The notes below the pieces were generated by a model. That model did not search any database. It was not told the DNA's origin and saw only the letters and a list, made by a program, of their open reading frames with translations. Shown piece after piece: positions 179 to 28,332 of a stretch of 32,000 nt of DNA (position 1 is the stretch's first letter; every line of letters starts with the position of its first letter). Location of the stretch: positions 2,580,001 through 2,612,000 of the forward strand of contig CP104013.1 of NCBI GenBank assembly GCA_025839675.1, in the 5' to 3' direction. The position numbers were made by a program, and so were the translations under genes. The DNA comes from Candidatus Lokiarchaeum ossiferum. Lineage in GTDB: Archaea; Asgardarchaeota; Lokiarchaeia; Sigyniarchaeales; Promethearchaeaceae.

Positions 179-1342
179 TTATAGTTTAGGCATTTTATTT
201 TGAGTTTTTGTTTTTTTTCTGAGGAAGAGAATTATGGAAAGAAGGGAGATCCCTAAAAAGATGAAACCAAACGATATTGTTCCATTTTCATCACTTTCAG
301 AACTAAAATCAGTAGAAAGAGGTTCCCATTTAGAGTCTGTAGAATCATAGGACCATAAATCCCCATAGTTCACACTATAGTCTTCTCCAAGCCCTCCAAA
401 TAGGTAAGTTTTATTGGTTGACGAAGCAAAAGCCATGGCATGTCCGGTTCGGGGGGATGGAGTGCTATCGGGAGAGAATTCAGTCCAAGTTGAAGAGGAA
501 GATCCATTGAAACACCATGTATCCCCCAAAGCTCGAATAGGGGATTCTTCATTATCACCTCCAAACAGGAGGCTTTGACCCAAATGAGAATCAAATACCA
601 TAGAAAACCAATATCGGCTTAAAGGAGTTGTATTAGGAGACTTTTTTTGCCAAGTACCTTCTGTAAGATTCAAACTCCATGTTTCACTAGACAGACCAGA
701 GACACGCCCTCCAAAAAGTATTCCTAATTTAGCATTGGTATCGTATACCATAGCATGGCCATAACGAGCTTGGGGTGGAGTATTTGTGGTTAATTGCACC
801 CAATTTTCAGTCTGTGGATTAAAAATCCATGTTGCATCCTTAAGAACAAAATTGGGATCAACGTGACCTCCATAAATAACAATTTTTTGTTCGTTTTCAT
901 CATAATGCATAGAGAAATCAGCCAAATTTGGTGGAGAATTTTCGGGTGATAATTTTGTCCAAGCGTTAGAAGAAGGATCAAAAGCCCATGTTTCACCTCC
1001 ACCAAAATAAATGACCCGATTTGTGGATGGATCGTAGACCATTCCAGAATTTTCTTGAATTCTTGGAACGATTGGAGTATTTATAGGAGTCCAAGTATTA
1101 TTGGATAGATGATAAAGCCACGTAGAATAATCTGGAGAACTACTTGCCATAGTTCGACTTCCGAAAAGAATTAGTTGATTTTGAATAGGATCGAAGACCA
1201 TGGAATGGGCATACAGAAGAGAAGGTCCATCATTAGAAGATGAGGAATAACCAAGCGAAGGAAAACTTATCAAACCGAAAATGAAAATAAAAAAAGCAAA
1301 TTTAAGTTTGAAGTCGCGGTGAACTTTTAATTTTGACGACAT
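179..1342 (-). CDS. Surface-anchored Kelch-repeat (six-bladed beta-propeller) protein
   Basis: 387-aa ORF with an ATG start. N-terminal hydrophobic signal/anchor (FAFFIFIFGLISFPSLG). Six repeats each end in a hydrophobic-FGG/YGG motif (LILFGS, VIYFGG, IVIYGG, GILFGG, SLLFGG, TYLFGG), with W-containing strands (TW..L, AWTKL, NWVQL, TWQKK, TWTEF, KWEPL). C-terminal TM helix plus basic tail (ISFGFIFLGISLLSIILFLRKKTK). Confidence 0.8.
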   Translation of the reverse strand: MSSKLKVHRDFKLKFAFFIFIFGLISFPSLGYSSSSNDGPSLLYAHSMVFDPIQNQLILFGSRTMASSSPDYSTWLYHLSNNTWTPINTPIVPRIQENSGMVYDPSTNRVIYFGGGETWAFDPSSNAWTKLSPENSPPNLADFSMHYDENEQKIVIYGGHVDPNFVLKDATWIFNPQTENWVQLTTNTPPQARYGHAMVYDTNAKLGILFGGRVSGLSSETWSLNLTEGTWQKKSPNTTPLSRYWFSMVFDSHLGQSLLFGGDNEESPIRALGDTWCFNGSSSSTWTEFSPDSTPSPRTGHAMAFASSTNKTYLFGGLGEDYSVNYGDLWSYDSTDSKWEPLSTDFSSESDENGTISFGFIFLGISLLSIILFLRKKTKTQNKMPKL

Positions 1343-7380: not shown

Positions 7381-8235
7381 TCAGTTTTCTTCTACAGTAA
7401 TAGATGTTTTTTTTACTTTTCCAAATCCATAAAAGATGAAAACTGGAGAGATTATCCAAAATAAATGCCCTAGGATATAATAAAAAAGGGTAGGTAAAAC
7501 TAAAATCATCGGGGAGATAAGAGTTATCACACCTAAAATTACCCAATATATATGACCAATCCCAAGGAAAATGATTCCCCACATGAAAAAGGTAATTCGC
7601 TTTTTAAAATCTTTGGAAGGATCTTCTATTGCGATGTCTTTTAGGGTTAGATAAAGCATTAATGCACTGATTAAATAAATAATTACATTTAAAGCAATGG
7701 AAAACCCCGCAAATCCATTGAAGATCCCACTTACATCGATGCCAATGGATGAGATCAAGATTTGAATGATGTCTCCTGCGGAGATTATGATTGTTATTGC
7801 CCCCATTAAAATAATAACAATTGCATTATTCGTAAAAACTGCTTTTACTCTTTCTTCATCATATCGAAGTGCGAATGCTGCAATTAGGAAATTCCAATTC
7901 ATTACAGTGCTAGCCCCAAAAGCAATGTCTCTAAGAATATTCACCCAAAATAGAGATTGATAATTGAAATCATATCCTTGATAAATGCCCATTGGAGTTG
8001 TTTCATCCATGGATAACCCTGCACATGTATAAATAACCATATCCAGTGTAATATAAAGGACCCATGCAAACATCCCTATTAATAGAGATTTGTGAAATTG
8101 TGATCTATCTTTCCAAGCCGTTTGTTTATTTTTCTTGTTAATTAAGTAAATATTCATAATAAATAGAGCGGCTTCAATGGATTTAGGAATAATTAAGGTA
8201 AGTTCTAAATTTGAAATTAAGGGCACAATTATCAC
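7381..8235 (-). CDS. Polytopic integral membrane protein (about 8 TM), unknown function
   Basis: 284-aa ORF from GTG at 8235, with an alternative ATG at 8157 (MNIYLINKKN..). Hydrophobic helices run throughout. The gene sits 44 bp downstream of the GTPase gene on the same strand. Confidence 0.65.
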   Translation of the reverse strand: MIIVPLISNLELTLIIPKSIEAALFIMNIYLINKKNKQTAWKDRSQFHKSLLIGMFAWVLYITLDMVIYTCAGLSMDETTPMGIYQGYDFNYQSLFWVNILRDIAFGASTVMNWNFLIAAFALRYDEERVKAVFTNNAIVIILMGAITIIISAGDIIQILISSIGIDVSGIFNGFAGFSIALNVIIYLISALMLYLTLKDIAIEDPSKDFKKRITFFMWGIIFLGIGHIYWVILGVITLISPMILVLPTLFYYILGHLFWIISPVFIFYGFGKVKKTSITVEEN

Positions 8236-8279: not shown

Positions 8280-9209
8280 TTATGCTTGATACGTTTGCAT
8301 CATTAATGATTTTCTAAAAACAGTATAAATCGTTGATCTATAGATAGTATTTTTAAATCCCACAGGCATTAGCTGTTTGATGGGGCCAATAATTTTCTCA
8401 TTGATGGTTTGCTGGGAAAATTTCCCTTCCTTATCGATATTAGGATCAAATTTGTGAAGAAATATATCCATTTCAAAGGTTTGTGAAAATTGGTCCAAAC
8501 TTCCAATGATCTCGCTCAAATAAGAAATAGATTCAGCATATCGTTTATCATTTTGGACATCGATGACATAGATTATTTTATCAAAGCCTCTGATAACAGA
8601 AATAGGATCTTTTTTAAATTCTTCACGAAAGACTACTTGACCGCCATATTCAAAGTATATTGAATCAGGTTGGATTTTTGTCTCCAAATTCATATCAGAG
8701 AGAATTTCGGACATATGTTTCTTCCCATTTGTTGCTTTGAGATTTTGGTTCATATAAGCCATCAAATTTTTGTTTCCTAAGAAGCTAAGGAGAATTGAAG
8801 TTTTTCCACTACTATCAAGTCCCATGAGTAGTACTTTTTTTCCTTTCATGCCTTTTTTTGCAGAAACAACATCAGATGTAGAAAGATAAGAACTTACGGA
8901 CTCTAACATATCAAAAATCTGTCGATCTCGGATTTTATAAAATTTTTGCGTACCTTCTTTTCGATATGTTACCAAGTTGGAGTTAGATAAACTTTTTAAT
9001 TGCTGCGATGTAGTGGAATGGCTTTTTCCAGTAATTTTTTCAATATCACTGACAGTCAGCGGACCAGATCGAAGAGATTGAAGAATTGCCATTCTAGTAT
9101 CATCGGCAATTGCCTTCAAGACATTCATATATGTGAATTTATTTTCCATTTTAGTACTCTCAACGGGTAATTTTTCTTTCTTATATATGTTTAAAAGAAG
9201 CTCAAACAT
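8280..9209 (-). CDS. ArsR-family winged-HTH fused to a Rag/Gtr1-like small GTPase domain
   Basis: 309-aa ORF with ATG at 9209 (alternative ATG at 9149). The wHTH is ADDTRMAILQSLRSGPLTVSDIEKITGKSHSTTSQQLKSLSNSNLV. GTPase motifs: G1 GLDSSGKT (nt 8799-8822), G3-like FEYGGQ, and G4 in the Rag-type HKxD form (FLHKFD). KKVLLMG, IIYVIDVQN and YRSTIY resemble RagA as I recall it. Confidence 0.75.
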   Translation of the reverse strand: MFELLLNIYKKEKLPVESTKMENKFTYMNVLKAIADDTRMAILQSLRSGPLTVSDIEKITGKSHSTTSQQLKSLSNSNLVTYRKEGTQKFYKIRDRQIFDMLESVSSYLSTSDVVSAKKGMKGKKVLLMGLDSSGKTSILLSFLGNKNLMAYMNQNLKATNGKKHMSEILSDMNLETKIQPDSIYFEYGGQVVFREEFKKDPISVIRGFDKIIYVIDVQNDKRYAESISYLSEIIGSLDQFSQTFEMDIFLHKFDPNIDKEGKFSQQTINEKIIGPIKQLMPVGFKNTIYRSTIYTVFRKSLMMQTYQA

Positions 9210-9406: not shown

Positions 9407-10204
9407 ATGACTGAAAATCAAAATAAAACCGTTGCAAGTGAAAACGCATATGCAATAGAAGTTGAAAACTTAAAAAAGCACTTCACTAGTAAATCCGAAG
9501 CTAACATTGTGAAAGCTGTTGACGATATATCCTTCAAAGTTAAGGAAGGCGAATTCTTTGGACTTTTAGGGCCAAATGGCGCTGGGAAAACCACCACCAT
9601 AAAAATGTTGACAGGTCTTAGCACCCCATCTGAAGGAACCGCACGCATTGGAGGATATGATCTTAAATCACAAATGATGAAGATTAAAGAATCTATTAGT
9701 GTATGCCCTCAGGAACCAGCCTTGTTTAAATTTCTCTCGGGAATTGAGAACATTGAATTTTTTGCAAATCTACACTTGATGTCAAAAACCGAAATCAAAG
9801 CTCAAGCAGAGAAATTCTTAAATCTCTTGGGACTATACGATGTCCGTAAAAGAAAAGTAAAAGGTTATAGTGGTGGAATGTTGCGACAGCTTAGTTTAAT
9901 TGTATCATTGATCCATGATCCAGAAACAATATTTTTAGATGAACCAACTGTAGGTATGGATCCACGTGCTCGACGTAAAGTGTGGGATTTTCTTGGAACT
10001 ATCAAAAAACAAAAGAAAACAATCATCTTAACCACCCATTATATAGAGGAAGCCGAAGCCCTTTGTGATAGAGTGGCAATCATTGATTATGGAAAGTTAG
10101 TTGCCTTAGGAGCACCCCAAGATCTTATTGCCCAATATGAAGTTAAAAATTTAGAAGAAGTCTTTATGAAAATAACTGGCAGAAGCATTTTGGAGGGGTT
10201 ATAA
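9407..10204 (+). CDS. ABC transporter ATP-binding protein (ABC-2 / DrrA-type exporter ATPase)
   Basis: Walker A GPNGAGKTT, Q-loop region, signature YSGGMLRQLS, Walker B IFLDEPTVGMD, H-loop TTHY. 265 aa. Confidence 0.95.
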   Translation: MTENQNKTVASENAYAIEVENLKKHFTSKSEANIVKAVDDISFKVKEGEFFGLLGPNGAGKTTTIKMLTGLSTPSEGTARIGGYDLKSQMMKIKESISVCPQEPALFKFLSGIENIEFFANLHLMSKTEIKAQAEKFLNLLGLYDVRKRKVKGYSGGMLRQLSLIVSLIHDPETIFLDEPTVGMDPRARRKVWDFLGTIKKQKKTIILTTHYIEEAEALCDRVAIIDYGKLVALGAPQDLIAQYEVKNLEEVFMKITGRSILEGL

Positions 10205-10206
10205 AA

Positions 10207-10962
10207 ATGGAATTTCAAAGAATACGAGCCATTGTTAAAATGGAAATTAAACGTCAGCTACGAGATCCCCTAACTCTATTCATAACCACCCTAATGGTAC
10301 CAGCACTGATCGTAGTAATGGGTTTATCGTTAGATTCCGTGTATTCATGGTCTCCAGACTATAGTGTATTTGAAATAATGTTTCCTGGATTTCTGGCTTA
10401 TGGATGTTTGCTGACAATTTTTGATGTTGCAGGATCCGTGGCAACGGAAAAGGAATTAGGAGTTCAAATTCGGCTGATAACTAGTCCTCTGTCATCTTCT
10501 GAATATATATTTGCTCAATTAATCGCTTATACAATTAAACCTTTGGTTCAAGCAATTATAGGAATTCCACTTGGATATTTAGTTGGATACCGCCCTGATA
10601 TTTCCGTAATGGGATACATCTTAATAGTAGTATTTCTGATAATTCTAACCTTTTGCTCAGTCGGATTTGGACTTATTACAGCAAGTTTAGTAAAGAATGC
10701 CGGAGCAGCACAAGGTTTAGCTTTCGCATTCATAGTCCCCCAACAAATCTTTGGATCTTTTATCCCAGCCGCTTTCTTCGGATTAGAAAAATTTGCATGG
10801 GTCCTTCCCAGTTTTTATGCGACAGATGGAATTGGACTCATCTTTGCAGGAACAAATCTCTTAGATTCCCAAATTTGGCTTCGAATGTTATTGCTTTGCA
10901 CCATAAGTTTAGTAATTTATGTAATCGGAACTTTTCTTTTTGAGAAAAATAAAAAATCATAA
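10207..10962 (+). CDS. ABC-2 type transporter permease
   Basis: Starts 2 nt after the ATPase stop, with a GGAGGGG RBS upstream. 251 aa, six hydrophobic helices, typical ABC-2 length and layout. Paralogous to the C-terminal half of the next ORF. Confidence 0.85.
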   Translation: MEFQRIRAIVKMEIKRQLRDPLTLFITTLMVPALIVVMGLSLDSVYSWSPDYSVFEIMFPGFLAYGCLLTIFDVAGSVATEKELGVQIRLITSPLSSSEYIFAQLIAYTIKPLVQAIIGIPLGYLVGYRPDISVMGYILIVVFLIILTFCSVGFGLITASLVKNAGAAQGLAFAFIVPQQIFGSFIPAAFFGLEKFAWVLPSFYATDGIGLIFAGTNLLDSQIWLRMLLLCTISLVIYVIGTFLFEKNKKS

Positions 10963-10983: not shown

Positions 10984-12921
10984 ATGCAGAAAATAACACA
11001 CAAAAGCAAATTGAACTCAAATCGTGAAGTATGGGTAGATTATCTACGGATATTTGCCGTTTTTTTAGTTATTCCTTACCATATAATAATCTCCTATGTT
11101 GAGAGTGTGTTTGGTGAAGGGACACACTTCACAATTTGGAACGAATATTTCCCAAAAGGAGCTCACCAGATTTGGAATTTCTTCAATCCTTGGCATATGC
11201 AATTACTTTTTGTTCTGGCGGGTTTTAGTTTGGTCCTTTCATTAAAAAAACGTTCATTCAAGATTTTTACTCAAGAACGTCTTATCCGAATTGGAATCCC
11301 AATCATTTTTGGAATTATCTTGTTAAACGCCATAATGAGTTGGTTTAGCACCATGTTTTATTACAATTTACACCCAGAAGTTAATCCAATATACCCAAAC
11401 CTTCCAGATTTTTGGACATTTTTTGTCTATTGGTGGTGGATAGGAAAATCTTTCAATTCAGGTCATTTATGGTTCTTAGTTGTATTGCTTGTGTTAAGCC
11501 TCGGGATGGGATTGATCATTTCACTTATACAAAAAAAGAAAGCCGATTCCACTCACAATCAGAATAGGTCAACAAAATTTCTTAAATTTCTAACACATCC
11601 AGCCACAATGTTATTATGGGGTCTAATAGCAACACCTTTAAGCTATATTAAACCAGCCTACACAAATCCAACTCTATCTGCCATATTTGGAGTCTTTCAA
11701 TACAATCAAGTTCTATTCTTTCTTTTTGGGATCATTCTTGCATGTAATCGACAAAATATAGACAGAATCAATCAACATTGGAAATGGACACTACCTCTTG
11801 GATTCAGTATGTTAATCACTTGGATTATATTTCAAAAAGATTATCTTCTGGTCTTAAAAAATGTTGGAGCATGGTTCTTTGTATATGGACTGATTTGTTT
11901 AGCAAGTGTGAAACTCACAAAATCCTCAAAAACCCTCCAATATCTATCAAAAGCCAGTATGCCAGTTTACATTCTTCATTTACCTTTGGAAATTATTGTT
12001 GGCTACTTTATAATTCAACTTCCAATTTATCCGATATTGGAAATCTTTCTACTTGTGATCATCAATTTAATCTTATGTTTTCTTTTATATGATGGAATAC
12101 ATAGATTAAATCGAGTAATTCCAGGGATAGGGTTAGTAGTTGGTATTAAAGAGAAGAATATGATGCAAAAAATTCGCCGAATGTTAACAATTGTGAAATT
12201 AGAAATGAAAAGACTATTTCGGGAACCAATGACAGTTATCTTTACATTATTCCTTGTTCCAATTCTAATCATAATTCTTGGGCTAGCCATGGGTTCAAAT
12301 TACGGTTGGCATCCGGATTACTCAATATTTGATATAATGATGCCAGGATTATTAGCCTATAATGCATTACTTTCCACATATGATGTGGCCGCATCTGTTG
12401 CAAGCGAAAAAGAGTTAGGAATTCAAATAAGGATTAACACAACACCACTAACATCTGCAGAATATATTGGGAGTCATTTAATATCCTATTCCATTAAGCC
12501 AATTATTCAATTGTTGCTAAGTTTACTCACAGCCTATGCTGTTGGATATCGCCCCGTAGCTTCAGTGGTTGGTTATATCGTTGTAATTGCATTCATGATT
12601 TTTTTAACCTTATGTTCTGTCGGTTTTGGGCTGATTACAGCAAATTTCGCAAAAAGTTCCAGTTCCGCGGGAAGTTTAGCTTTTGCGTTTATCGTACCAC
12701 AGCAAATTTTCGCATCCATAATCCCTCCTGCGTTTTTGGGAATGGAAAAATTGGCCATGTTCATGCCAAGCTTTTATGCAACTGAAGGTATGGGTCTTCT
12801 TTTAGCAGGTGCATCTTTAACAACACCAGATATTTGGGCCAAAATGGGGATATTGGGGATTTTCACATTAGTATTTGTGATTATTGGAACAATTCTTTAT
12901 GAAAAAGGACGAAAGGAGTAG
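10984..12921 (+). CDS. Fusion protein: acyltransferase-3 (OafA/AT3) membrane domain plus a second ABC-2 permease domain
   Basis: Single 645-aa frame with no stop. The N-terminal ~390 aa carry the AT3 TM1 signature (REVWVDYLRIFAVFLVIPYHI: R, D, R, H) and about 10 TM helices. Residues 393-645 (from the ATG pair at 12160) align along their full length with the 10207-10962 permease (e.g. GFGLITA, LAFAFIVPQQIF, PSFYAT). Confidence 0.8.
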   Translation: MQKITHKSKLNSNREVWVDYLRIFAVFLVIPYHIIISYVESVFGEGTHFTIWNEYFPKGAHQIWNFFNPWHMQLLFVLAGFSLVLSLKKRSFKIFTQERLIRIGIPIIFGIILLNAIMSWFSTMFYYNLHPEVNPIYPNLPDFWTFFVYWWWIGKSFNSGHLWFLVVLLVLSLGMGLIISLIQKKKADSTHNQNRSTKFLKFLTHPATMLLWGLIATPLSYIKPAYTNPTLSAIFGVFQYNQVLFFLFGIILACNRQNIDRINQHWKWTLPLGFSMLITWIIFQKDYLLVLKNVGAWFFVYGLICLASVKLTKSSKTLQYLSKASMPVYILHLPLEIIVGYFIIQLPIYPILEIFLLVIINLILCFLLYDGIHRLNRVIPGIGLVVGIKEKNMMQKIRRMLTIVKLEMKRLFREPMTVIFTLFLVPILIIILGLAMGSNYGWHPDYSIFDIMMPGLLAYNALLSTYDVAASVASEKELGIQIRINTTPLTSAEYIGSHLISYSIKPIIQLLLSLLTAYAVGYRPVASVVGYIVVIAFMIFLTLCSVGFGLITANFAKSSSSAGSLAFAFIVPQQIFASIIPPAFLGMEKLAMFMPSFYATEGMGLLLAGASLTTPDIWAKMGILGIFTLVFVIIGTILYEKGRKE

Positions 12922-12993: not shown

Positions 12994-13515
12994 TTAGCAT
13001 TCTACAAGATTTGATGGAACATCATAATAAGTCTGGCAAAAATAATAAATTTTCACTGCTTCTTCTTTAACTTTCCATTTAAAATCAGTAATAAAATTTC
13101 TAAAATCAATATCATCCATAGATCCTTCTTGAGATTCTACGAAAACATTCAAGAACCATTTATTTCTACTGGTCTCATCCCCATCATATATTTTTTTACT
13201 AATCTGAACTGTAATATTTCGTATCTGTTCAATATTTAGTATCTTACTTCGCTTTGAATGAATTCGTGATATCAATCGAATTTCATTTTGCTTGAAGATT
13301 ATTTTTCTATAAGGGGTTCTAATGATATTAAAAACCATATAAACACCAAAAAGAACGAGAAAAAGATATAAAAAATCAATGGTTCCACCAGTATTCGTAA
13401 TAAGTATAGTGATTAGTAAAAAAGGCAGGCTTTTTATCACAGTATAAAAAAATTTTTTTTTATATACCATTACTGGCTCATTGTTAAGAGCCAGTTCTTC
13501 AACATTATATACCAT
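12994..13515 (-). CDS. Membrane protein with two N-terminal TM helices and a possible bacterial-PH-like (YdbS-type) domain
   Basis: 173-aa ORF with an ATG start. TM hairpin (LPFLLITILITNTGG / FLYLFLVLFGVYMVFNII) followed by a beta-rich soluble part (IIFKQNEIRLISRIHSKRSKILNIEQIRNITVQ). The domain call is tentative. Confidence 0.5.
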   Translation of the reverse strand: MVYNVEELALNNEPVMVYKKKFFYTVIKSLPFLLITILITNTGGTIDFLYLFLVLFGVYMVFNIIRTPYRKIIFKQNEIRLISRIHSKRSKILNIEQIRNITVQISKKIYDGDETSRNKWFLNVFVESQEGSMDDIDFRNFITDFKWKVKEEAVKIYYFCQTYYDVPSNLVEC

Positions 13516-13634: not shown

Positions 13635-14309
13635 ATGAGTTTTGCACAATACGAGAACGCGGCCCCTCATACACTCCAAGCATTGGAAAATATGCGGAAT
13701 TGGGAAATGTTGGAATGGTATGCAATACCAATGCTCGGAATAATGTTTTACATCTATGCGAAAGAAATTCAAAAAGCAAGAACAACCAAAAATTGGGATC
13801 CTCTCTTTTGTGCGGTCACGGTGATGGGGGTCGTGTTCTTCAATGAAACTTGGAATAGTTGGGTTGCATGGTTTACAGGAAAATCAGCTATTTGGACAAC
13901 ACCAGGGGATACGGCATTTTTAATCATGTTTGGAATCAATTTTGAAATTTTGTGCCTCTTTCTAATAAATGGATTTACCTACGCAAATCTCATCGATCCA
14001 GATGAAAAAAAGAAATTTTTAGGAATTCCAAATTGGTGGTTTTATGGAATCTTAGTATCTGGTTTTTCAGTTTTGGTTGAACATATGCTCAACAGTGCAA
14101 ATCTACTAGTCTGGTATTTTTCCTTTTGGGATCGGGATTTTTGGGGATTTTGGATAATTTTATGGATTGGATACTTTCTATTCTACTTAGCCTGTATCCT
14201 CGTTCTACGACTAAAATCTACTAAAAAAAGGTTAATTGCGGTGGGATCAATATATGCAGTACCAATCATAATGAATATCATTGCTGCTATTCTGGGGATG
14301 GTATATTAG
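13635..14309 (+). CDS. Trp-rich polytopic membrane protein, unknown function
   Basis: 224-aa ORF with ATG preceded by a GAGGA RBS. About 6 hydrophobic helices. No recognisable motif. Confidence 0.6.
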   Translation: MSFAQYENAAPHTLQALENMRNWEMLEWYAIPMLGIMFYIYAKEIQKARTTKNWDPLFCAVTVMGVVFFNETWNSWVAWFTGKSAIWTTPGDTAFLIMFGINFEILCLFLINGFTYANLIDPDEKKKFLGIPNWWFYGILVSGFSVLVEHMLNSANLLVWYFSFWDRDFWGFWIILWIGYFLFYLACILVLRLKSTKKRLIAVGSIYAVPIIMNIIAAILGMVY

Positions 14310-14344: not shown

Positions 14345-14995
14345 TTAATTTTGATTGAGATTTTTGATAAAACCAAGCAATTTTTGAATTCTTTCATCCT
14401 CAAGATCCACACCCAGATACTGAATCCAATCTTTAACTTCCCGATAATTAGTGGGATCAATTTGAAAACCTAAGAAATCATTTTTCCGCATATAGAAAAA
14501 CAAAAATCCATCCTCAATTTCTTCAATGGAAAAAGCAACCCCAAATAATTTCACTATGTTCCCAGCAAATTGATAACTTTCCCTCATTGGTTTTTTAAGA
14601 TTCGTCCGGTATTTTAAAACGAGATAATTTTTACCTAAAGTAGAATCATATTGGGATTTTTTTGCATTCATAGCTTCAATGAAAATAGTATTTGGCAAAC
14701 TCTTCGAAGAATTTAACTCTTCAGCTAACTGATTAAACAAATCATGTCCCATTTTATAACATTCAAGAAAACGAGATTCTGATGGGTATATTAATTCAAA
14801 CAACAAACCACAATCTTCTGTTTCGATCCATCTAGCGGGAACCTTATGAGTTCGTTCAAATCGTTTTTTGATCAAAGAAAGGATATGTTTATGTGACCAC
14901 TCCTTTTCAAGAGTTGAAATAACGGAGATCTGAAGAAAGGGTTTCATTTCGAAGACATTATTGTAATAGTTTTTATAAAATATGAAGTTATTCAA
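14345..14995 (-). CDS. Hypothetical cytoplasmic protein
   Basis: The ORF is open from TTG at 14995. A more conventional ATG lies at 14947 (MKPFLQISV.., 200 aa). No motif recognised. Confidence 0.5.
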   Translation of the reverse strand: MNNFIFYKNYYNNVFEMKPFLQISVISTLEKEWSHKHILSLIKKRFERTHKVPARWIETEDCGLLFELIYPSESRFLECYKMGHDLFNQLAEELNSSKSLPNTIFIEAMNAKKSQYDSTLGKNYLVLKYRTNLKKPMRESYQFAGNIVKLFGVAFSIEEIEDGFLFFYMRKNDFLGFQIDPTNYREVKDWIQYLGVDLEDERIQKLLGFIKNLNQN

Positions 14996-15071: not shown

Positions 15072-16304
15072 ATGGATACTGAATACGATCAAACTGCAAC
15101 TCTCGAAGAATTACAAGTGGAATCATCGCAAAGGAAGAGATATTTTCAAGTGGATGCCATGAAGGCAATCATGATTGGATTGGTAATTATGGATCATACC
15201 TTTACTCACAGTTTTTTACATCAATTTGGATCTCCTTTTTGGGAACGAATTTCAATCCCAATATTGATGATCATTATGGGTTTTAATTTGGGAAACTCAT
15301 CGAAGGGAATAAATCACATGAAATTAAAAGATTATTATACCCGATCTTATTTTGAGAAGAAATTGAAGCGATATTTCATCCCCTACCTCATTCTTTACTT
15401 CATTCACGGTATAATGAGGTTAATTGTAACATTAGGGGAGATTCAAATAAATTCCCCTGCAACATATGATTCAGCGGTCTTTCGGTACCTAGGATTCACG
15501 CTCTTTTACGGTCCAGGCTTGTGGTTCATCCCGGTTCTCTTTGGAACAATACTAGTGTTTCCAATCTTACATTTCTACTTTAAAAAAATGCCATCAACAA
15601 CTTTTTTTGCAACTTTTTGTATAGAATTTTTGACCCAATTTATTGTATTAATGATCCTTAGTACCAATCAAGGTAATATTCTAGGAGTATTTTACTTTCT
15701 TTACAGTGTTTTCTGTTTGTTCAGTGCTATTGGAATGGGATTATGGCTTTCAATTGATCATAATATGTCATCCAAACATAACGTAGTAATTTGGATCCTT
15801 TTTCCAATCAGTTTAGGATACATGATTATCGCTATGATATTCCCAGGGCTTTTATTTTTCCCAATTGGTGATTATCAAATGTTTTATTTCCCCTATTCTG
15901 CAGTAATATTTATGTGTTGCATGAAACTTATCCCCGAAAATCCCAAAGGTACAGTTAGTGAGTTTATTAGGAAAGTGAGTAAATCCACATATCATATTTT
16001 ATTAGCCCAGATATTTTATTTCTCAATTGTTTTTCAATTCTTTTTGATAATGACCGATGGAGATGCTTCCACCCTTGATATTTTTGATGCAGCACCTTTG
16101 AACTATTTATGGTTCTTTCCACTAAATTTGGTTATTACATTTGGAATTGGATTATTTTGGAACCATCTTGAAGAGAAGTTTTATAAAAAGATGCCTGAAA
16201 AGAGAGGATATCAAAAAATATATGCTTTTATGCTAACATTGGCCGTGATCGCATTTGCAGCATGGATAATTGGACAAATTTTATTTTTCTTTGTGGTATT
16301 TTAA
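15072..16304 (+). CDS. Acyltransferase-3 family integral membrane protein
   Basis: 410-aa ORF with a GAGGA RBS. The AT3 TM1 signature is RKRYFQVDAMKAIMIGLVIMDHTF (R, D, H), followed by about 10 TM helices. Confidence 0.7.
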   Translation: MDTEYDQTATLEELQVESSQRKRYFQVDAMKAIMIGLVIMDHTFTHSFLHQFGSPFWERISIPILMIIMGFNLGNSSKGINHMKLKDYYTRSYFEKKLKRYFIPYLILYFIHGIMRLIVTLGEIQINSPATYDSAVFRYLGFTLFYGPGLWFIPVLFGTILVFPILHFYFKKMPSTTFFATFCIEFLTQFIVLMILSTNQGNILGVFYFLYSVFCLFSAIGMGLWLSIDHNMSSKHNVVIWILFPISLGYMIIAMIFPGLLFFPIGDYQMFYFPYSAVIFMCCMKLIPENPKGTVSEFIRKVSKSTYHILLAQIFYFSIVFQFFLIMTDGDASTLDIFDAAPLNYLWFFPLNLVITFGIGLFWNHLEEKFYKKMPEKRGYQKIYAFMLTLAVIAFAAWIIGQILFFFVVF

Positions 16305-25831: not shown

Positions 25832-27259
25832 TTATTGGCCTGTACTTGATAACAAAATAGACACTACGAGCCCTAAAAGAAGCAAAACTAATAGAATAAA
25901 ATAATATTTTGGTTTCCATTTTTTGATATACTTCCCATCGAGTGCAAATCCCTTGAATTCGCCCGGAAACATATTAAATGTCCCTAAAACGCAATTTAAG
26001 GATCCCCCTTGTAAGAAAATCATCTTCAAAGTAGATAAGGATCCGGGGAGTATGAGTGAAATTAGAATAAATACTAATCCAAGGATGAAATTTGAAGCGG
26101 GACCCGCAATTTTAATCGCCCCCATTTTATCTTTATCATCGTCAGGATCAACCCCAACAGATACGGCAGCTCCGGGTAAAGCGATTGGAATTCCAATTAT
26201 TGCAGAACGAAGGGTTGTTTTCATCCCTACAGTTGTTAAACAAAAACGACTTTGGAAATGAAAATGTTTCCCTGTCTGTAGATGAGCGGTTTCATGCACA
26301 ATAAAAGACAGAGAAAAGATTAAAGCAATAGGGAGAGGTTCAAAAAATATTGCAGATATGCCGATAAAGTATTGATATTGGATATAATAATATAAAGCAG
26401 TTAATCCCATAACATTAATATAAGAGTGATACACCATAATAAAAAGTAAACTAAAGGCAACAAGAATATGCCATGTTTCACTCTTTTCTAATTTATAGAC
26501 CATTCCCAAATCTAATCCAGAATCTGGACGAAAGGCATTTGGAGGAATAGGCATTTTTCTTTTGACTAAAATGAAACTATTGGAAGTAAAGGAAGGATCC
26601 TCTGGATCCATAAAAATTGCATTCCGTCTTCGATAAGCAGGAGCCATAGATGGATCATGAACTGGGGGAACGGTGGGTGCCTGGGTTGGATCAAAATAAA
26701 CTCCACCAGATGACGATTCTTCGCTAGGTGCCACCGTTGGAGATTGAGTAGGATCAGTGAAGGAATGATGCGAGCGTGAAGGAGGTGCCACAGTAGAAGC
26801 AATTGTGGGATCTTTGAATGGTTCTTCATTTAATTTTTCTACTTGACTTGAACCACTTCCATTTGGAGTGTTAATTGTAGTATCATGAAAAATAAGATCC
26901 ATTTGAATCAACGTACCGTTTTCTTCGACAGGTACAATAATTTTATCACCATTTTTCAAGAGTTGTGGGGTTGTTTGTTTTAAATTCAAGTTTCCCAGGT
27001 AAGTTCCATTCGTACTATTTAGATCCTCGATGTAATAACGATCTCCTCTTAAAGAAATAATAAATTGTTGTTTAACATAACTCCCGGTTTTTGGATCTTT
27101 TCGAACACTCGAAATAGCGGAAAATAGTGCGGGATCAACGCTAAGTGTTGCAGATTTTTTGATATCCTTCTTTCCTATGTGAAAAACGTGTTGATTTTGA
27201 GGGAGGAGAATTTTACCACCAATTTTGGGAATTTCCAGATAAATTTCGCGAACAACCAT
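25832..27259 (-). CDS. FHA domain fused through a Pro/Ser/Thr-rich linker to an M50 site-2 protease membrane domain
   Basis: 475 aa. FHA core is ISLRGDRYYIEDLNSTNGTYLGN...LKNGDKIIVP. The membrane half carries an intramembrane HETAH (nt 26282-26296), AGPASNF, and the second S2P motif NMFPGEFKGFALDG (N..P....LDG). Confidence 0.8.
   Translation of the reverse strand: MVVREIYLEIPKIGGKILLPQNQHVFHIGKKDIKKSATLSVDPALFSAISSVRKDPKTGSYVKQQFIISLRGDRYYIEDLNSTNGTYLGNLNLKQTTPQLLKNGDKIIVPVEENGTLIQMDLIFHDTTINTPNGSGSSQVEKLNEEPFKDPTIASTVAPPSRSHHSFTDPTQSPTVAPSEESSSGGVYFDPTQAPTVPPVHDPSMAPAYRRRNAIFMDPEDPSFTSNSFILVKRKMPIPPNAFRPDSGLDLGMVYKLEKSETWHILVAFSLLFIMVYHSYINVMGLTALYYYIQYQYFIGISAIFFEPLPIALIFSLSFIVHETAHLQTGKHFHFQSRFCLTTVGMKTTLRSAIIGIPIALPGAAVSVGVDPDDDKDKMGAIKIAGPASNFILGLVFILISLILPGSLSTLKMIFLQGGSLNCVLGTFNMFPGEFKGFALDGKYIKKWKPKYYFILLVLLLLGLVVSILLSSTGQ
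26660..26815 (-). repeat. Coding tandem repeat in the FHA-S2P linker (three DPTxxxTVxP units)
   Basis: The units are DPTIASTVAPP, DPTQSPTVAPS and DPTQAPTVPPV, spaced 18-21 residues apart (protein residues about 149-200). Confidence 0.7.
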
Positions 27260-27324: not shown

Positions 27325-28332
27325 TCAATAAATGCCCGTAACCACGCGGCGTCCAAATTTATTAAACATTAATTTCCCACCTAAAATACCCATTAGCTGT
27401 CCAACATAAGAAGCAGTTGAGATTCCGGTGAAAAATATACCTAAAATTGCAAATACAGAGGAATAAGCAATTAAAAAATAAAGAATATATTTCGCTTTGA
27501 GTTTAACGGGAATGAAATAGAGATACATTCGCATTTCTCGATTTAAACCAACAAGATGCAATAGGAAAGTCATCATGCCAAGAATAGCGCACCATTGAGT
27601 AGAAATCAAGAATAAATCCAACAATCTCCCGATAGAAAGTATCATTCCTAAAGATTGGACAAGCACTATTGATAAAACACCCAATCCACCGCAAGCTAAA
27701 TAAATGGTAGCCATGAATTTTGATCCAAATTGCATTTCAATGGATTTACCAATAGAATAGAGCATTAATTCAGCAAAAAGTAATCCAAAAATATCGCGAG
27801 GGGCAAACATAGATGTTATTAAAGTTGGAATTGCTAAAATACTTGAAAATAGATTTAATGTATTGAATAGAATATATGGTTCCAATATTGGAAAGAGCGT
27901 TAGGACGAAGAAAAACGCTGATAAGCCCATAAACGTATAGGTGACTTGCATCTTATTTGTCCGTGAAATAAATGGACTATAATTTTCACCAGTGGGACGA
28001 CTGCCTCTAGTAGGAGGAGGGGGCATAGCTTGACGTTCTTGAGCCCGGATATAATCGCGCATTTCCCGTTCCATTTGTTTTTCGGTATCTTCAGGAGTGG
28101 TATAGTTCGGAGTATTAAAATTATTTTGAGCGGGATTATAAGATTCTTCTGGCACTGAAGTAGTTGATGAAGCAACTGTCGTCCGAGCACGAGGGTTATC
28201 ATTCATAGAAAACGTACAATCATGATTTTCAGGTAATCGATGTAGTTTACAAAAAGTTCCGCCACAATATCGACATTTAAAAGGGAGATAAGTCAACGTT
28301 TCGTTGCAATCGGGAGTATCGCATTTAACCAT
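27325..28332 (-). CDS. AN1-type zinc finger fused to a rhomboid-fold six-TM domain that lacks recognisable catalytic residues
   Basis: 335 aa with a GAGGA RBS. The AN1 pattern is C-x4-C-x10-C-x2-C-x4-C-x2-H-x5-H-x-C ([28 protein letters not shown]). The membrane part matches the rhomboid TM2-3 core (LITSMF...[28 protein letters not shown]). The HxxxN, GxSG and TM6 His positions read GLLFAE, TQWC and SYVGQ instead. Confidence 0.7.

Follow-up and report, generated by a model that had tools for sequence, protein, structure and literature searches.

An AT3 Acyltransferase Joined in Frame to an ABC-2 Permease

The window analyzed here is a 32,000-nucleotide (nt) stretch of DNA from the Asgard archaeon Candidatus Lokiarchaeum ossiferum (assembly GCA_025839675.1, contig CP104013.1, positions 2,580,001 to 2,612,000 of the forward strand; GC content ∼33%), and coordinates in it are counted from its first nucleotide. 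The GC content, the gene for a fused HTH and small GTPase protein beside the cassette (table 1), and permease homologs labeled as Asgard all suit this source. It carries a cassette of three consecutive genes, which encode a bare ABC ATPase, a stand-alone ABC-2 membrane subunit (permease A), and a protein in which an AT3 membrane acyltransferase is joined to a second ABC-2 permease (permease B; table 1). The ATPase gene is separated from that of permease A by 2 nt, placing a cognate ATPase in the same operon, and a Shine-Dalgarno-like motif, GGAGAG, lies 9–14 nt 5′ of the ATG of the fused gene. A first-pass annotation, made from the sequence alone, had described a frame of 645 amino acids (aa) with no stop between the two domains, and the list of open reading frames (ORFs) indeed gives one uninterrupted frame. 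The gene fusion is genuine and selectively maintained.

Both halves of the protein are recognized by Pfam. The profile PF01757 (Acyl_transf_3) matches residues 16–369 at 121.1 bits (cutoff 31) and is covered from position 2 to 325 of 326. Farther along the chain, PF01061 (ABC2_membrane) matches residues 401–603 at 52.0 bits (cutoff 26.9) and PF12698 (ABC2_membrane_3) matches residues 447–636 at 49.7 bits (cutoff 31.6). Permease A aligns without gaps to residues 396–645 at 54% identity (E = 3e-97), a likeness that cannot be chance. The same paralogy had been read in the first-pass annotation from shared blocks (SPDYS/HPDYS, GFGLITA, LAFAFIVPQQIF, and PSFYAT), all of which are seen in the alignment of the two permeases.

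Table 1. Coordinates of the fused gene, its parts, and associated genes (window coordinates unless another locus is named)
Feature	Coordinates	Strand	Description
Fused AT3–ABC-2 permease gene	10984..12921	+	Single uninterrupted ORF, 645 aa + stop, ATG start
AT3/TmAT acyltransferase core	11029..12117	+	Residues 16–378, ten transmembrane helices; PF01757, 121 bits
Acyl-CoA-binding and catalytic motif of the first transmembrane helix, D19-x-x-R22-x10-H33	11038..11082	+	Conservation in 84 AT3 homologs
Cytoplasmic connector	12118..12159	+	Residues 379–392 (14 residues); carries the conserved AT3 C-terminal motif PGIGxxxGIKEK
Permease B domain	12160..12918	+	Residues 393–645; PF01061, PF12698; interface helix, six transmembrane helices, re-entrant helices
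ABC ATPase	9407..10204	+	265 aa; Pfam ABC_tran, 110 bits; bare nucleotide-binding domain of DrrA/NodI-like type
Permease A, stand-alone ABC-2 membrane subunit	10207..10962	+	251 aa; PF01061, 73.5 bits
ArsR-type helix-turn-helix (HTH) and Gtr1/RagA/Arf-like small GTPase fusion	8280..9209	-	309 aa; Pfam HTH_5 and Gtr1_RagA/Arf; divergent from the cassette
Zinc-type alcohol dehydrogenase (Zn-ADH)-family genes in other Asgard loci	L003 9964-10737; L007 3999-4442; L020 6844-7836; L021 4225-5160, 8789-9748, 10619-11656; P0006 contig		

Conservation of the Fusion and Its Junction

Four further ORFs are fused at the same junction. The closest, P0330 (WP_371806552.1; 645 aa), is encoded on a 6,274,825-bp contig of a second Ca. 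L. ossiferum genome and differs from the window protein at two residues. P0002, at locus L001, is again 645 aa long, is 82–83% identical, and lies on a 114-kb contig with flanking genes as in the window. The other two are each 61% identical to the window fusion, P0331 being complete at 663 aa and P0003, at locus L002, having a late in-frame stop. At locus L019, an AT3 gene whose product is 94% identical to that of L002 directly follows an ATPase and a permease, and the contig ends before the junction. Checked for a stop or frameshift, the junction shows neither, whether in the window or in any of these four ORFs. Checked for genes that are always separate, the closest orthologs proved to be fused, and stand-alone AT3 genes occur only in a more distant clade. 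NCBI labels P0330 [quoted passage not shown]; public annotation contains the fused protein, without remark on its architecture.

Purifying selection is evident to either side of the junction. When the window is compared with L001 (dS ∼0.8), the ratio of nonsynonymous to synonymous substitution rates (dN/dS) is 0.16 for the AT3 domain, 0.125 for the connector with the interface helix, 0.08 for permease B, and 0.07 for permease A and for the ATPase, indicating that the frame has been kept open and constrained. In this comparison, the ATPases are 91% identical and the A permeases 84% identical.

The boundary between the domains is itself informative. In all orthologs, fused or stand-alone, the AT3 domain ends in the motif PGIGxxxGIKEK. 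Stand-alone AT3s continue with QI or QIW and a hydrophilic tail of up to ∼20 residues before their stop, and in the fused proteins GI(K/R)EK is followed by (N/H/R)-Met and then directly by the permease, with no spacer. Every fused form retains this Met (Met393 in the window protein), and in the alignment stand-alone permeases begin two residues past it, at Gln395. Therefore, the AT3 tail, its stop codon, and any spacer were lost in the fusion event, which left the permease complete. The ATG pair that the first-pass annotation pointed out at 12160–12165 encodes Met393-Met394.

The stop of L002 (2484–2486) falls inside permease B, on a contig of 2.7× coverage that ends 23 nt away. Homology runs on beyond it, and the cluster mate P0331 has a Gly at this position. 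The stop is either a sequencing error or a strain-specific mutation, far from the junction in both cases; were it a strain-specific truncation, the AT3 domain would stay joined to half a permease.

Fold and Catalytic Motifs of the Acyltransferase Half

The whole protein was modeled with AlphaFold2 on a checked block alignment (A5), and helices were assigned by DSSP. An alignment made with MAFFT (A4), in which the C-terminal halves of AT3-only sequences were laid onto the permease region, was set aside. The whole-protein model has a predicted local distance difference test score (pLDDT) of 87.7 and a predicted template modeling score (pTM) of 0.79. The AT3 half modeled alone reaches 90.4 and 0.89, and both models have ten helices in this half (residues 16–36, 71–89, 92–129, 160–188, 206–220, 240–254, 256–283, 286–310, 316–343, and 350–378).

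The core of TmAT and AT3 proteins is marked by DxxRx10H in transmembrane helix (TMH) 1, a Phe/Gly pair in TMH2, RxxR in TMH3, a Gly in TMH6, and SxxxY in TMH9, which line the acyl-CoA site; the TMH1 Arg is essential and the His is the family-specific catalytic residue (PMC12423673). All of these have counterparts in the fusion. The TMH1 motif reads D19-Y-L-R22, ten residues, and H33, the RxxR of TMH3 is R99-L-I-R102, the SxxxY of TMH9 is S325-x-x-x-Y329, and the TMH6 Gly is G249. The Phe/Gly pair, F76 and G80, is spaced FxxxG in this clade, with an uncertain register relative to the published FxxxxG. Across 84 AT3 homologs of 19–52% identity, D19, H33, G80, and R99 are invariant and R22, F76, G249, and Y329 are conserved in at least 90%, and among the AT3 orthologs R102 is invariant and S325 conserved. 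Judged by these residues, the AT3 domain is predicted to be catalytically competent, and nothing suggests that it is degenerate.

The predicted fold leads to the same family. The top Foldseek matches of the AT3 half in the PDB are HGSNAT structures (8vlu, 8jl4, and 8vlg) with probabilities of 0.96–0.99 and TM-scores of 0.44–0.47, the next match being at 0.35 or less, and a similarly modest TM-score has been published for OafB against HGSNAT (TmAT paper). A search of the PDB with the sequence of the fusion returned nothing at E ≤1. Profile match, motifs, and predicted fold thus agree with the first-pass assignment of the N-terminal half to AT3, and the TMH1 signature given there can be read as R14...D19-x-x-R22-x10-H33. 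Among named NCBIfam families, MdoC/OpgC is the closest, at 83.9 bits and below the equivalog cutoff of 338, so that acyl donor and acceptor are not assignable from it.

Permease Half and Topology of the Fusion

Permease B is predicted to be a complete ABC-2 (type V) permease. In the model, its helices span residues 393–413 (an amphipathic interface helix), 415–435, 448–478, 491–519, 528–554, 559–578, 582–607 (re-entrant), and 615–644, with short re-entrant helices between the fifth and sixth TMHs. Foldseek matches residues 393–645, all with a probability of 1.00 and at 13–20% sequence identity, to ABCH-9C, ABCG25, ABCG2, Wzm (6oih_D), PmtCD, and NosY. The fusion as a whole has 16 TMHs in the model.

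The two halves appear to meet on the cytoplasmic side. The model has no eleventh AT3 helix; helix 10 is followed by the 14-residue connector, which has a short helix (382–386) in a region of pLDDT 84–91, and then by the interface helix of the permease. The segment 376–410 is predicted to be cytoplasmic and has 9 Lys and Arg in 35 residues. Because the number of AT3 helices is even, the C-terminus of this domain lies in the cytoplasm, where the interface helix of a permease must also lie, and no extra helix is needed. On the evidence of the model, then, the fusion is topologically straightforward.

Related Cassettes in Asgard Archaea and the Origin of the Fusion

Asgard loci related to the cassette occur in three states. 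The ATPase–permease core stands alone in Promethearchaeum syntrophicum (L020), in L021 and L022, and in L023. In L003–L007 and the contig of P0006, which include GCA_016839865.1 and GCA_016839385.1, the core has a stand-alone AT3 immediately downstream. The core is accompanied by an AT3–permease B fusion in the window, the genome of P0330, L001, and the lineage of L002 and P0331. No second permease follows a stand-alone AT3 wherever the downstream sequence is readable (the contigs of L005 and L006 end too soon). The ATPase heads the cassette in every related locus. Likewise, every AT3 ortholog with readable upstream sequence directly follows an ABC-2 permease (window, L001, L002, L019, L003–L007, and the P0006 contig), which is strong neighborhood evidence for a functional link. 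A metagenome scan for AT3 orthologs added L010, on the same contig as L006, and one short new orthologous locus, L011. Scanning the genome collection with the AT3 alignment brought up two bacterial AT3 loci, both unrelated, and nothing else; it is no species-level survey.

In L021 (6734–6862) and L022 (2068–2196), the permease gene shares 23 nt at its 3′ end with a 42-aa ORF, and a like overlap with the permease is seen for the called AT3 starts of L004 and L019. The 42-aa ORF was considered as a remnant of AT3 and rejected, no similarity to AT3 being detected.

The AT3 domains point to a single fusion event. The stand-alone orthologs (P0004–P0009; L003–L007) are 48–52% identical to the fused AT3 and fall in the same orthogroup. 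By AT3 domain, fused proteins are 60–63% identical to one another and 50–56% identical to stand-alone ones, and identities within the stand-alone clade are 64–98%. Fused AT3s are thus nearer to one another than to the stand-alone clade, and their sequences favor a single origin of the fusion, which is confined to a small Lokiarchaeial clade. The likely history would begin with an exporter core that had a single permease, followed by acquisition of an AT3 gene downstream of this core. Subsequently, the permease would have been duplicated and the AT3 tail and stop codon lost, yielding the fusion in a lineage that includes Ca. Lokiarchaeum.

Rarity of the Architecture and Comparison with Known Systems

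A profile of the fused proteins was searched against 1.84 billion representatives of ∼15 billion proteins. Among the matches listed, which extend down to 85 bits, only P0002 and P0003 span both halves and the others are AT3-only or ABC-2-only; the 50%-identity cluster of P0002 should include the window protein, and a remote independent fusion with a combined score below ∼85 bits would escape this search. A word-indexed search of 5.8 billion clusters agreed with this result. The architecture is hence found in none beyond this group among the listed matches of at least 85 bits. A review of AT3 proteins (PMC9558356) and the TmAT paper list fusions of AT3 to SGNH domains, to alanine racemase (VanT), and to the eukaryotic NRF domain, and the string "ABC" is absent from both. 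Literature searches for an AT3–ABC fusion returned nothing relevant. The first-pass annotation was aware of no such fusion having been described, in agreement with the AT3 reviews and with the survey of 1.84 billion proteins. The architecture is undescribed, both of its domains belong to known families, and the coupling of AT3 acylation to export has precedents.

Among exporters, the cassette is most like DrrAB and NodIJ, which also consist of a bare ATPase and an ABC-2 permease of ∼250 aa and are the best-scoring NCBIfam families. It differs in having two paralogous permeases, one of which bears an enzyme, and it scores below every cutoff: the ATPase reaches 278.2 bits against drrA (TIGR01188; cutoff 312.45) and 201 bits against NodI (equivalog cutoff 521), and permease A reaches 22.7 bits against DrrB (TIGR01247; cutoff 223). 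NodX and NolL are AT3 enzymes that O-acetylate some of the Nod factors secreted by NodIJ. In rhizobia, however, the AT3 enzyme and the exporter are separate proteins without demonstrated contact. The type V exporters of solved structure Wzm–Wzt, ABCG2, ABCG25, ABCH-9C, PmtCD, and NosFY share the predicted fold of residues 393–645, but none of these has a polytopic transferase fused to its membrane domain.

Other systems are alike in concept. Acetylation of trehalose corynomycolate by TmaT, an AT3 protein of Corynebacterium, is needed for correct export and targeting. Unlike the protein described here, TmaT is stand-alone and its transporter is of the MmpL type, which belongs to the RND family; the side of the membrane on which it acylates is debated. 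In peptidase-containing ABC transporters (PCATs), a soluble C39 peptidase is covalently attached to a type IV ABC exporter and modification is part of export. PCATs may be compared with the fusion in concept only, their fold and chemistry being unrelated. The AT3–SGNH proteins (OafA, OafB, OatA, and PglI) share with the fusion an N-terminal ten-helix AT3 domain with the DxxRx10H, RxxR, and SxxxY motifs, followed by a C-terminal partner that handles the acceptor. Their partner is a soluble extracytoplasmic SGNH domain rather than a six-helix ABC-2 permease, and they need an extra helix with the partner outside (PMC9558356), whereas the junction of the fusion stays cytoplasmic. No SGNH or GDSL domain is found in the fusion, in which Pfam detects only ABC2_membrane families after AT3. 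HGSNAT, the one TmAT fold that has been solved, moves acetyl groups from cytosolic acetyl-CoA across the membrane (TmAT paper), as is proposed for the AT3 half, but it is of another Pfam family, has an Asn in place of the TMH1 His, lacks a transporter partner, and includes a further luminal domain and helix. Also close are the Asgard cassettes with a stand-alone AT3, in which the same ATPase and permease lie immediately upstream and AT3 ends in the same motif.

A Proposed Exporter That Acylates Its Substrate

On balance, the fusion is probably part of an asymmetric, DrrAB/NodIJ-like exporter, composed of two ATPases, permease A, and AT3–permease B, that couples export to acylation at the outer face. 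Two copies of the ATPase would power a dimer of permease A and the permease B domain, and each transporter would carry exactly one tethered acyltransferase. The exporter would move an amphipathic, hydroxyl-bearing substrate, such as a glycolipid, a lipid-linked glycan, or a secreted small molecule, to the outer leaflet or the surface. There, the AT3 domain would take the acyl group of cytoplasmic acyl-CoA and hand it, by way of its pore, to the emerging substrate. Acyl transfer across the membrane from cytoplasmic acyl-CoA is the general mechanism of AT3 enzymes (PMC9558356; TmAT paper). Exported molecules as acceptors have precedents in TmaT, in NodX and NolL acting on secreted Nod factors, and in the macrolide acyltransferases. 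Gene order that is conserved across ∼50% identity supports both the proposed stoichiometry of A and B and export-coupled acylation, which we infer. In addition, both permease copies of the window lineage are changed at 13–17 of 108 strongly conserved columns, mostly at different positions (permease A of L002 is changed at 2). These changes in sequence would fit the specialization of two nonequivalent subunits.

More tentatively, the AT3 domain may dock laterally on the permease and receive the emerging substrate directly at its outer-face active site, making the fusion a single-polypeptide export-and-acylate machine and a "Rosetta stone" for a long-standing question, that of how acceptors reach stand-alone AT3 enzymes, which have no SGNH partner. 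If so, the same physical complex is predicted for the unfused ATPase–permease–AT3 operons of other Asgard archaea.

Several observations weigh against a coupled, asymmetric exporter. Genes for glycosyltransferases, flippases, or lipid synthesis are absent from the surroundings of the cassette in the window, and the glycan or lipid-linked substrate suggested in the first-pass annotation is without direct support, there being no glycan-synthesis genes nearby. Relatives have the core without AT3 (L020 and L021–L023), and acylation is therefore not needed for transport as such; it would modify the exported product and not enable its transport. Contact between the AT3 and permease domains is suggested by a single value, the pTM of the whole-chain model. 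Additional internal initiation may take place at the Met conserved where the permease begins. Lastly, the history of the two permeases is not simple. In neighbor-joining trees, deep nodes have bootstrap values below 50%, and site patterns (four for orthology, eight for within-genome similarity, and five crossed) do not settle the orthology of A and B. The A-position permease of L019 (735–1490) groups with the B copy of the L002/P0331 lineage with 95% bootstrap; it is 84–87% identical to that copy versus 81% to permease A of L002. Gene conversion or replacement of one paralogous copy by the other is possible.

Alternatives to an Asymmetric, Acylating Exporter

A possible, though somewhat doubtful, alternative is that the cassette serves in the detoxification and efflux of a hydrophobic small molecule rather than in envelope biogenesis. 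A pump like DrrAB would remove a xenobiotic or secondary metabolite from the cell, and AT3 would inactivate or tailor this compound by O-acylation. DrrA is the best family for the ATPase and the permeases weakly match DrrB, but the DrrA and DrrB scores are all below curated cutoffs. Neighboring genes are regulators (the ArsR-type HTH-GTPase and AsnC-type/MarR HTH proteins) and, recurrently, Zn-ADH-family oxidoreductases rather than glycan-synthesis genes, and close relatives differ in whether they have AT3, in the manner of an accessory gene. The lactone rings and sugars of macrolides are among the acceptors of AT3 enzymes, yet most characterized AT3s act on glycans (PMC9558356), and no biosynthetic cluster for such a compound is nearby. 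This alternative concerns the substrate only and is compatible with the fused architecture and with the proposed mechanism. A role in small-molecule efflux or tailoring is as plausible as one in making an envelope glycolipid.

It is rather unlikely that permease A and the fusion each homodimerize and share the ATPase, forming two transporters, A2 and (AT3–B)2, with different substrates. Single-gene ABC-2 permeases normally form homodimers, as is implied by the core loci with a single permease, and in the lineage of L002 and L019 the A and B copies are 74–87% identical (74–76% in the L002 lineage), may exchange sequence, and may be interchangeable. The window lineage, on the other hand, has A and B copies that are only 54% identical, each having lost a different set of conserved residues, and the presence of one ATPase gene and the tight spacing of the cassette suggest a single complex. 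Mycobacterial Rv2686c–Rv2688c and ABCG5/G8 are precedents in which one type of ATPase works with two different ABC-2 permeases.

Less probable still is that initiation at Met393/394 yields permease B additionally, or for the most part, as a free protein of 253 aa. The transporter would then frequently have no tethered AT3, and tight translational coupling would account for the fusion as a by-product. All fused forms share Met393, two residues before the start of stand-alone permeases, and in the window it is preceded by the purine-rich AAAGAGAAG. This purine run, however, encodes KEK, which is conserved in stand-alone AT3s too, and it is not GAGG-like in L001 (AAAAGAAAAACAT) or L002 (AGAGAAAAACGG), whereas GGAGG or GAGG marks the genuine operon starts of the window. 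Thus, there is no conserved signal for internal initiation. Furthermore, with no stop codon between the domains, any ribosome translating AT3 must yield the fused protein, and no stop has arisen in lineages down to 61% identity.

An artifact, in which a sequencing or assembly error erased a stop or shifted the frame between separate AT3 and permease B genes, is effectively refuted: the stop in the low-coverage contig of L002 shows that errors or mutations occur in such contigs, but it is far from the junction and P0331 has a Gly there, the junction is open in five ORFs from different assemblies and samples, two of them on genome-sized contigs (6.04 and 6.27 Mb), the AT3 C-terminal motif leads straight into the permease N-terminus with no spacer, and the connector has a dN/dS of 0.125 at a dS of 0.8. 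The closed genome of Ca. L. ossiferum Loki-B35 was assembled from short and long reads (PMC9834061).

Across all domains of life, surface glycans, glycolipids, and secreted metabolites receive acyl groups from AT3 enzymes. The AT3 review lists as an open question the way in which stand-alone AT3s encounter their acceptors and their possible need for partner proteins (PMC9558356). The conserved fusion, together with its unfused sister operons, names an ABC-2 permease as a candidate partner for stand-alone AT3s and predicts a testable complex. For ABC transporters, an asymmetric exporter of the kind proposed would be a case of a membrane-embedded transferase in a type V exporter, forcing asymmetric assembly. 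Ca. L. ossiferum is one of few cultured Asgard archaea, with a single membrane, complex surface densities, and no ordered S-layer, and its envelope biochemistry is not understood (PMC9834061). With the host in culture, the predictions can be tested.

Genes Surrounding the Cassette

The HTH-GTPase encoded divergently from the cassette has a winged helix at residues 36–82 and a small GTPase at residues 118–299, and would be a eukaryote-like GTPase wired to a transcription-factor domain. At 68–94% identity, it is conserved in L001 and L023, where its gene again diverges from that of the ATPase, and in L021, at a distance of ∼3.7 kb upstream; it is a possible regulator of the cassette. Upstream synteny in L023 is as in the window, with a PAS protein, a 284-aa membrane protein, and the HTH-GTPase. 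In the window, the 284-aa polytopic membrane protein (7381–8235, minus strand) is encoded between the PAS-domain protein and the HTH-GTPase; it has counterparts in L001 (76%), L021 (70%, partial), and L023 (57%) and no match in Pfam, NCBIfam, or PADLOC. An anti-phage defense system was also considered for the cassette and rejected, as PADLOC has no match for the fusion or permease A and its matches to the ATPase and the HTH protein are generic.

Genes for Zn-ADH/quinone oxidoreductases (ADH_N and ADH_zinc_N) recur beside the ATPase–permease(–AT3) cassette in several Asgard loci (table 1), and none is among the scanned ORFs of the window. These genes may be a clue to the class of substrate.

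Two kb downstream of the fusion is a second, stand-alone AT3 (15072–16304, plus strand; 410 aa; PF01757, 64 bits). Its TMH1 motif is D-x-x-K-x10-H, with Lys for Arg as has been reported for the Cas1_AcylT and TraX families. It was considered as a paralog of the fused AT3 and set aside, as the two have no significant BLAST similarity; it is an unrelated member of the family. Three ORFs between the fusion and this gene (12994–13515, minus strand; 13635–14309, plus strand; and 14345–14995, minus strand) have no Pfam match, nor have the two that were scanned against NCBIfam a match there. The 224-aa product of the second of these ORFs looks like a polytopic membrane protein, and L001 has different genes at this place.

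Elsewhere in the window, two adjacent genes on the minus strand have unusual domain combinations: one (25832–27259) joins an FHA domain with an M50 (site-2 protease) domain, and the other (27325–28332) an AN1-type zinc finger with a rhomboid protease domain. At its other end, another eukaryote-like protein, a 387-aa Kelch-repeat beta-propeller (179–1342, minus strand), has its best matches to the eukaryote-type Kelch families KLHDC2/KLHL20 and attractin/LZTR1.

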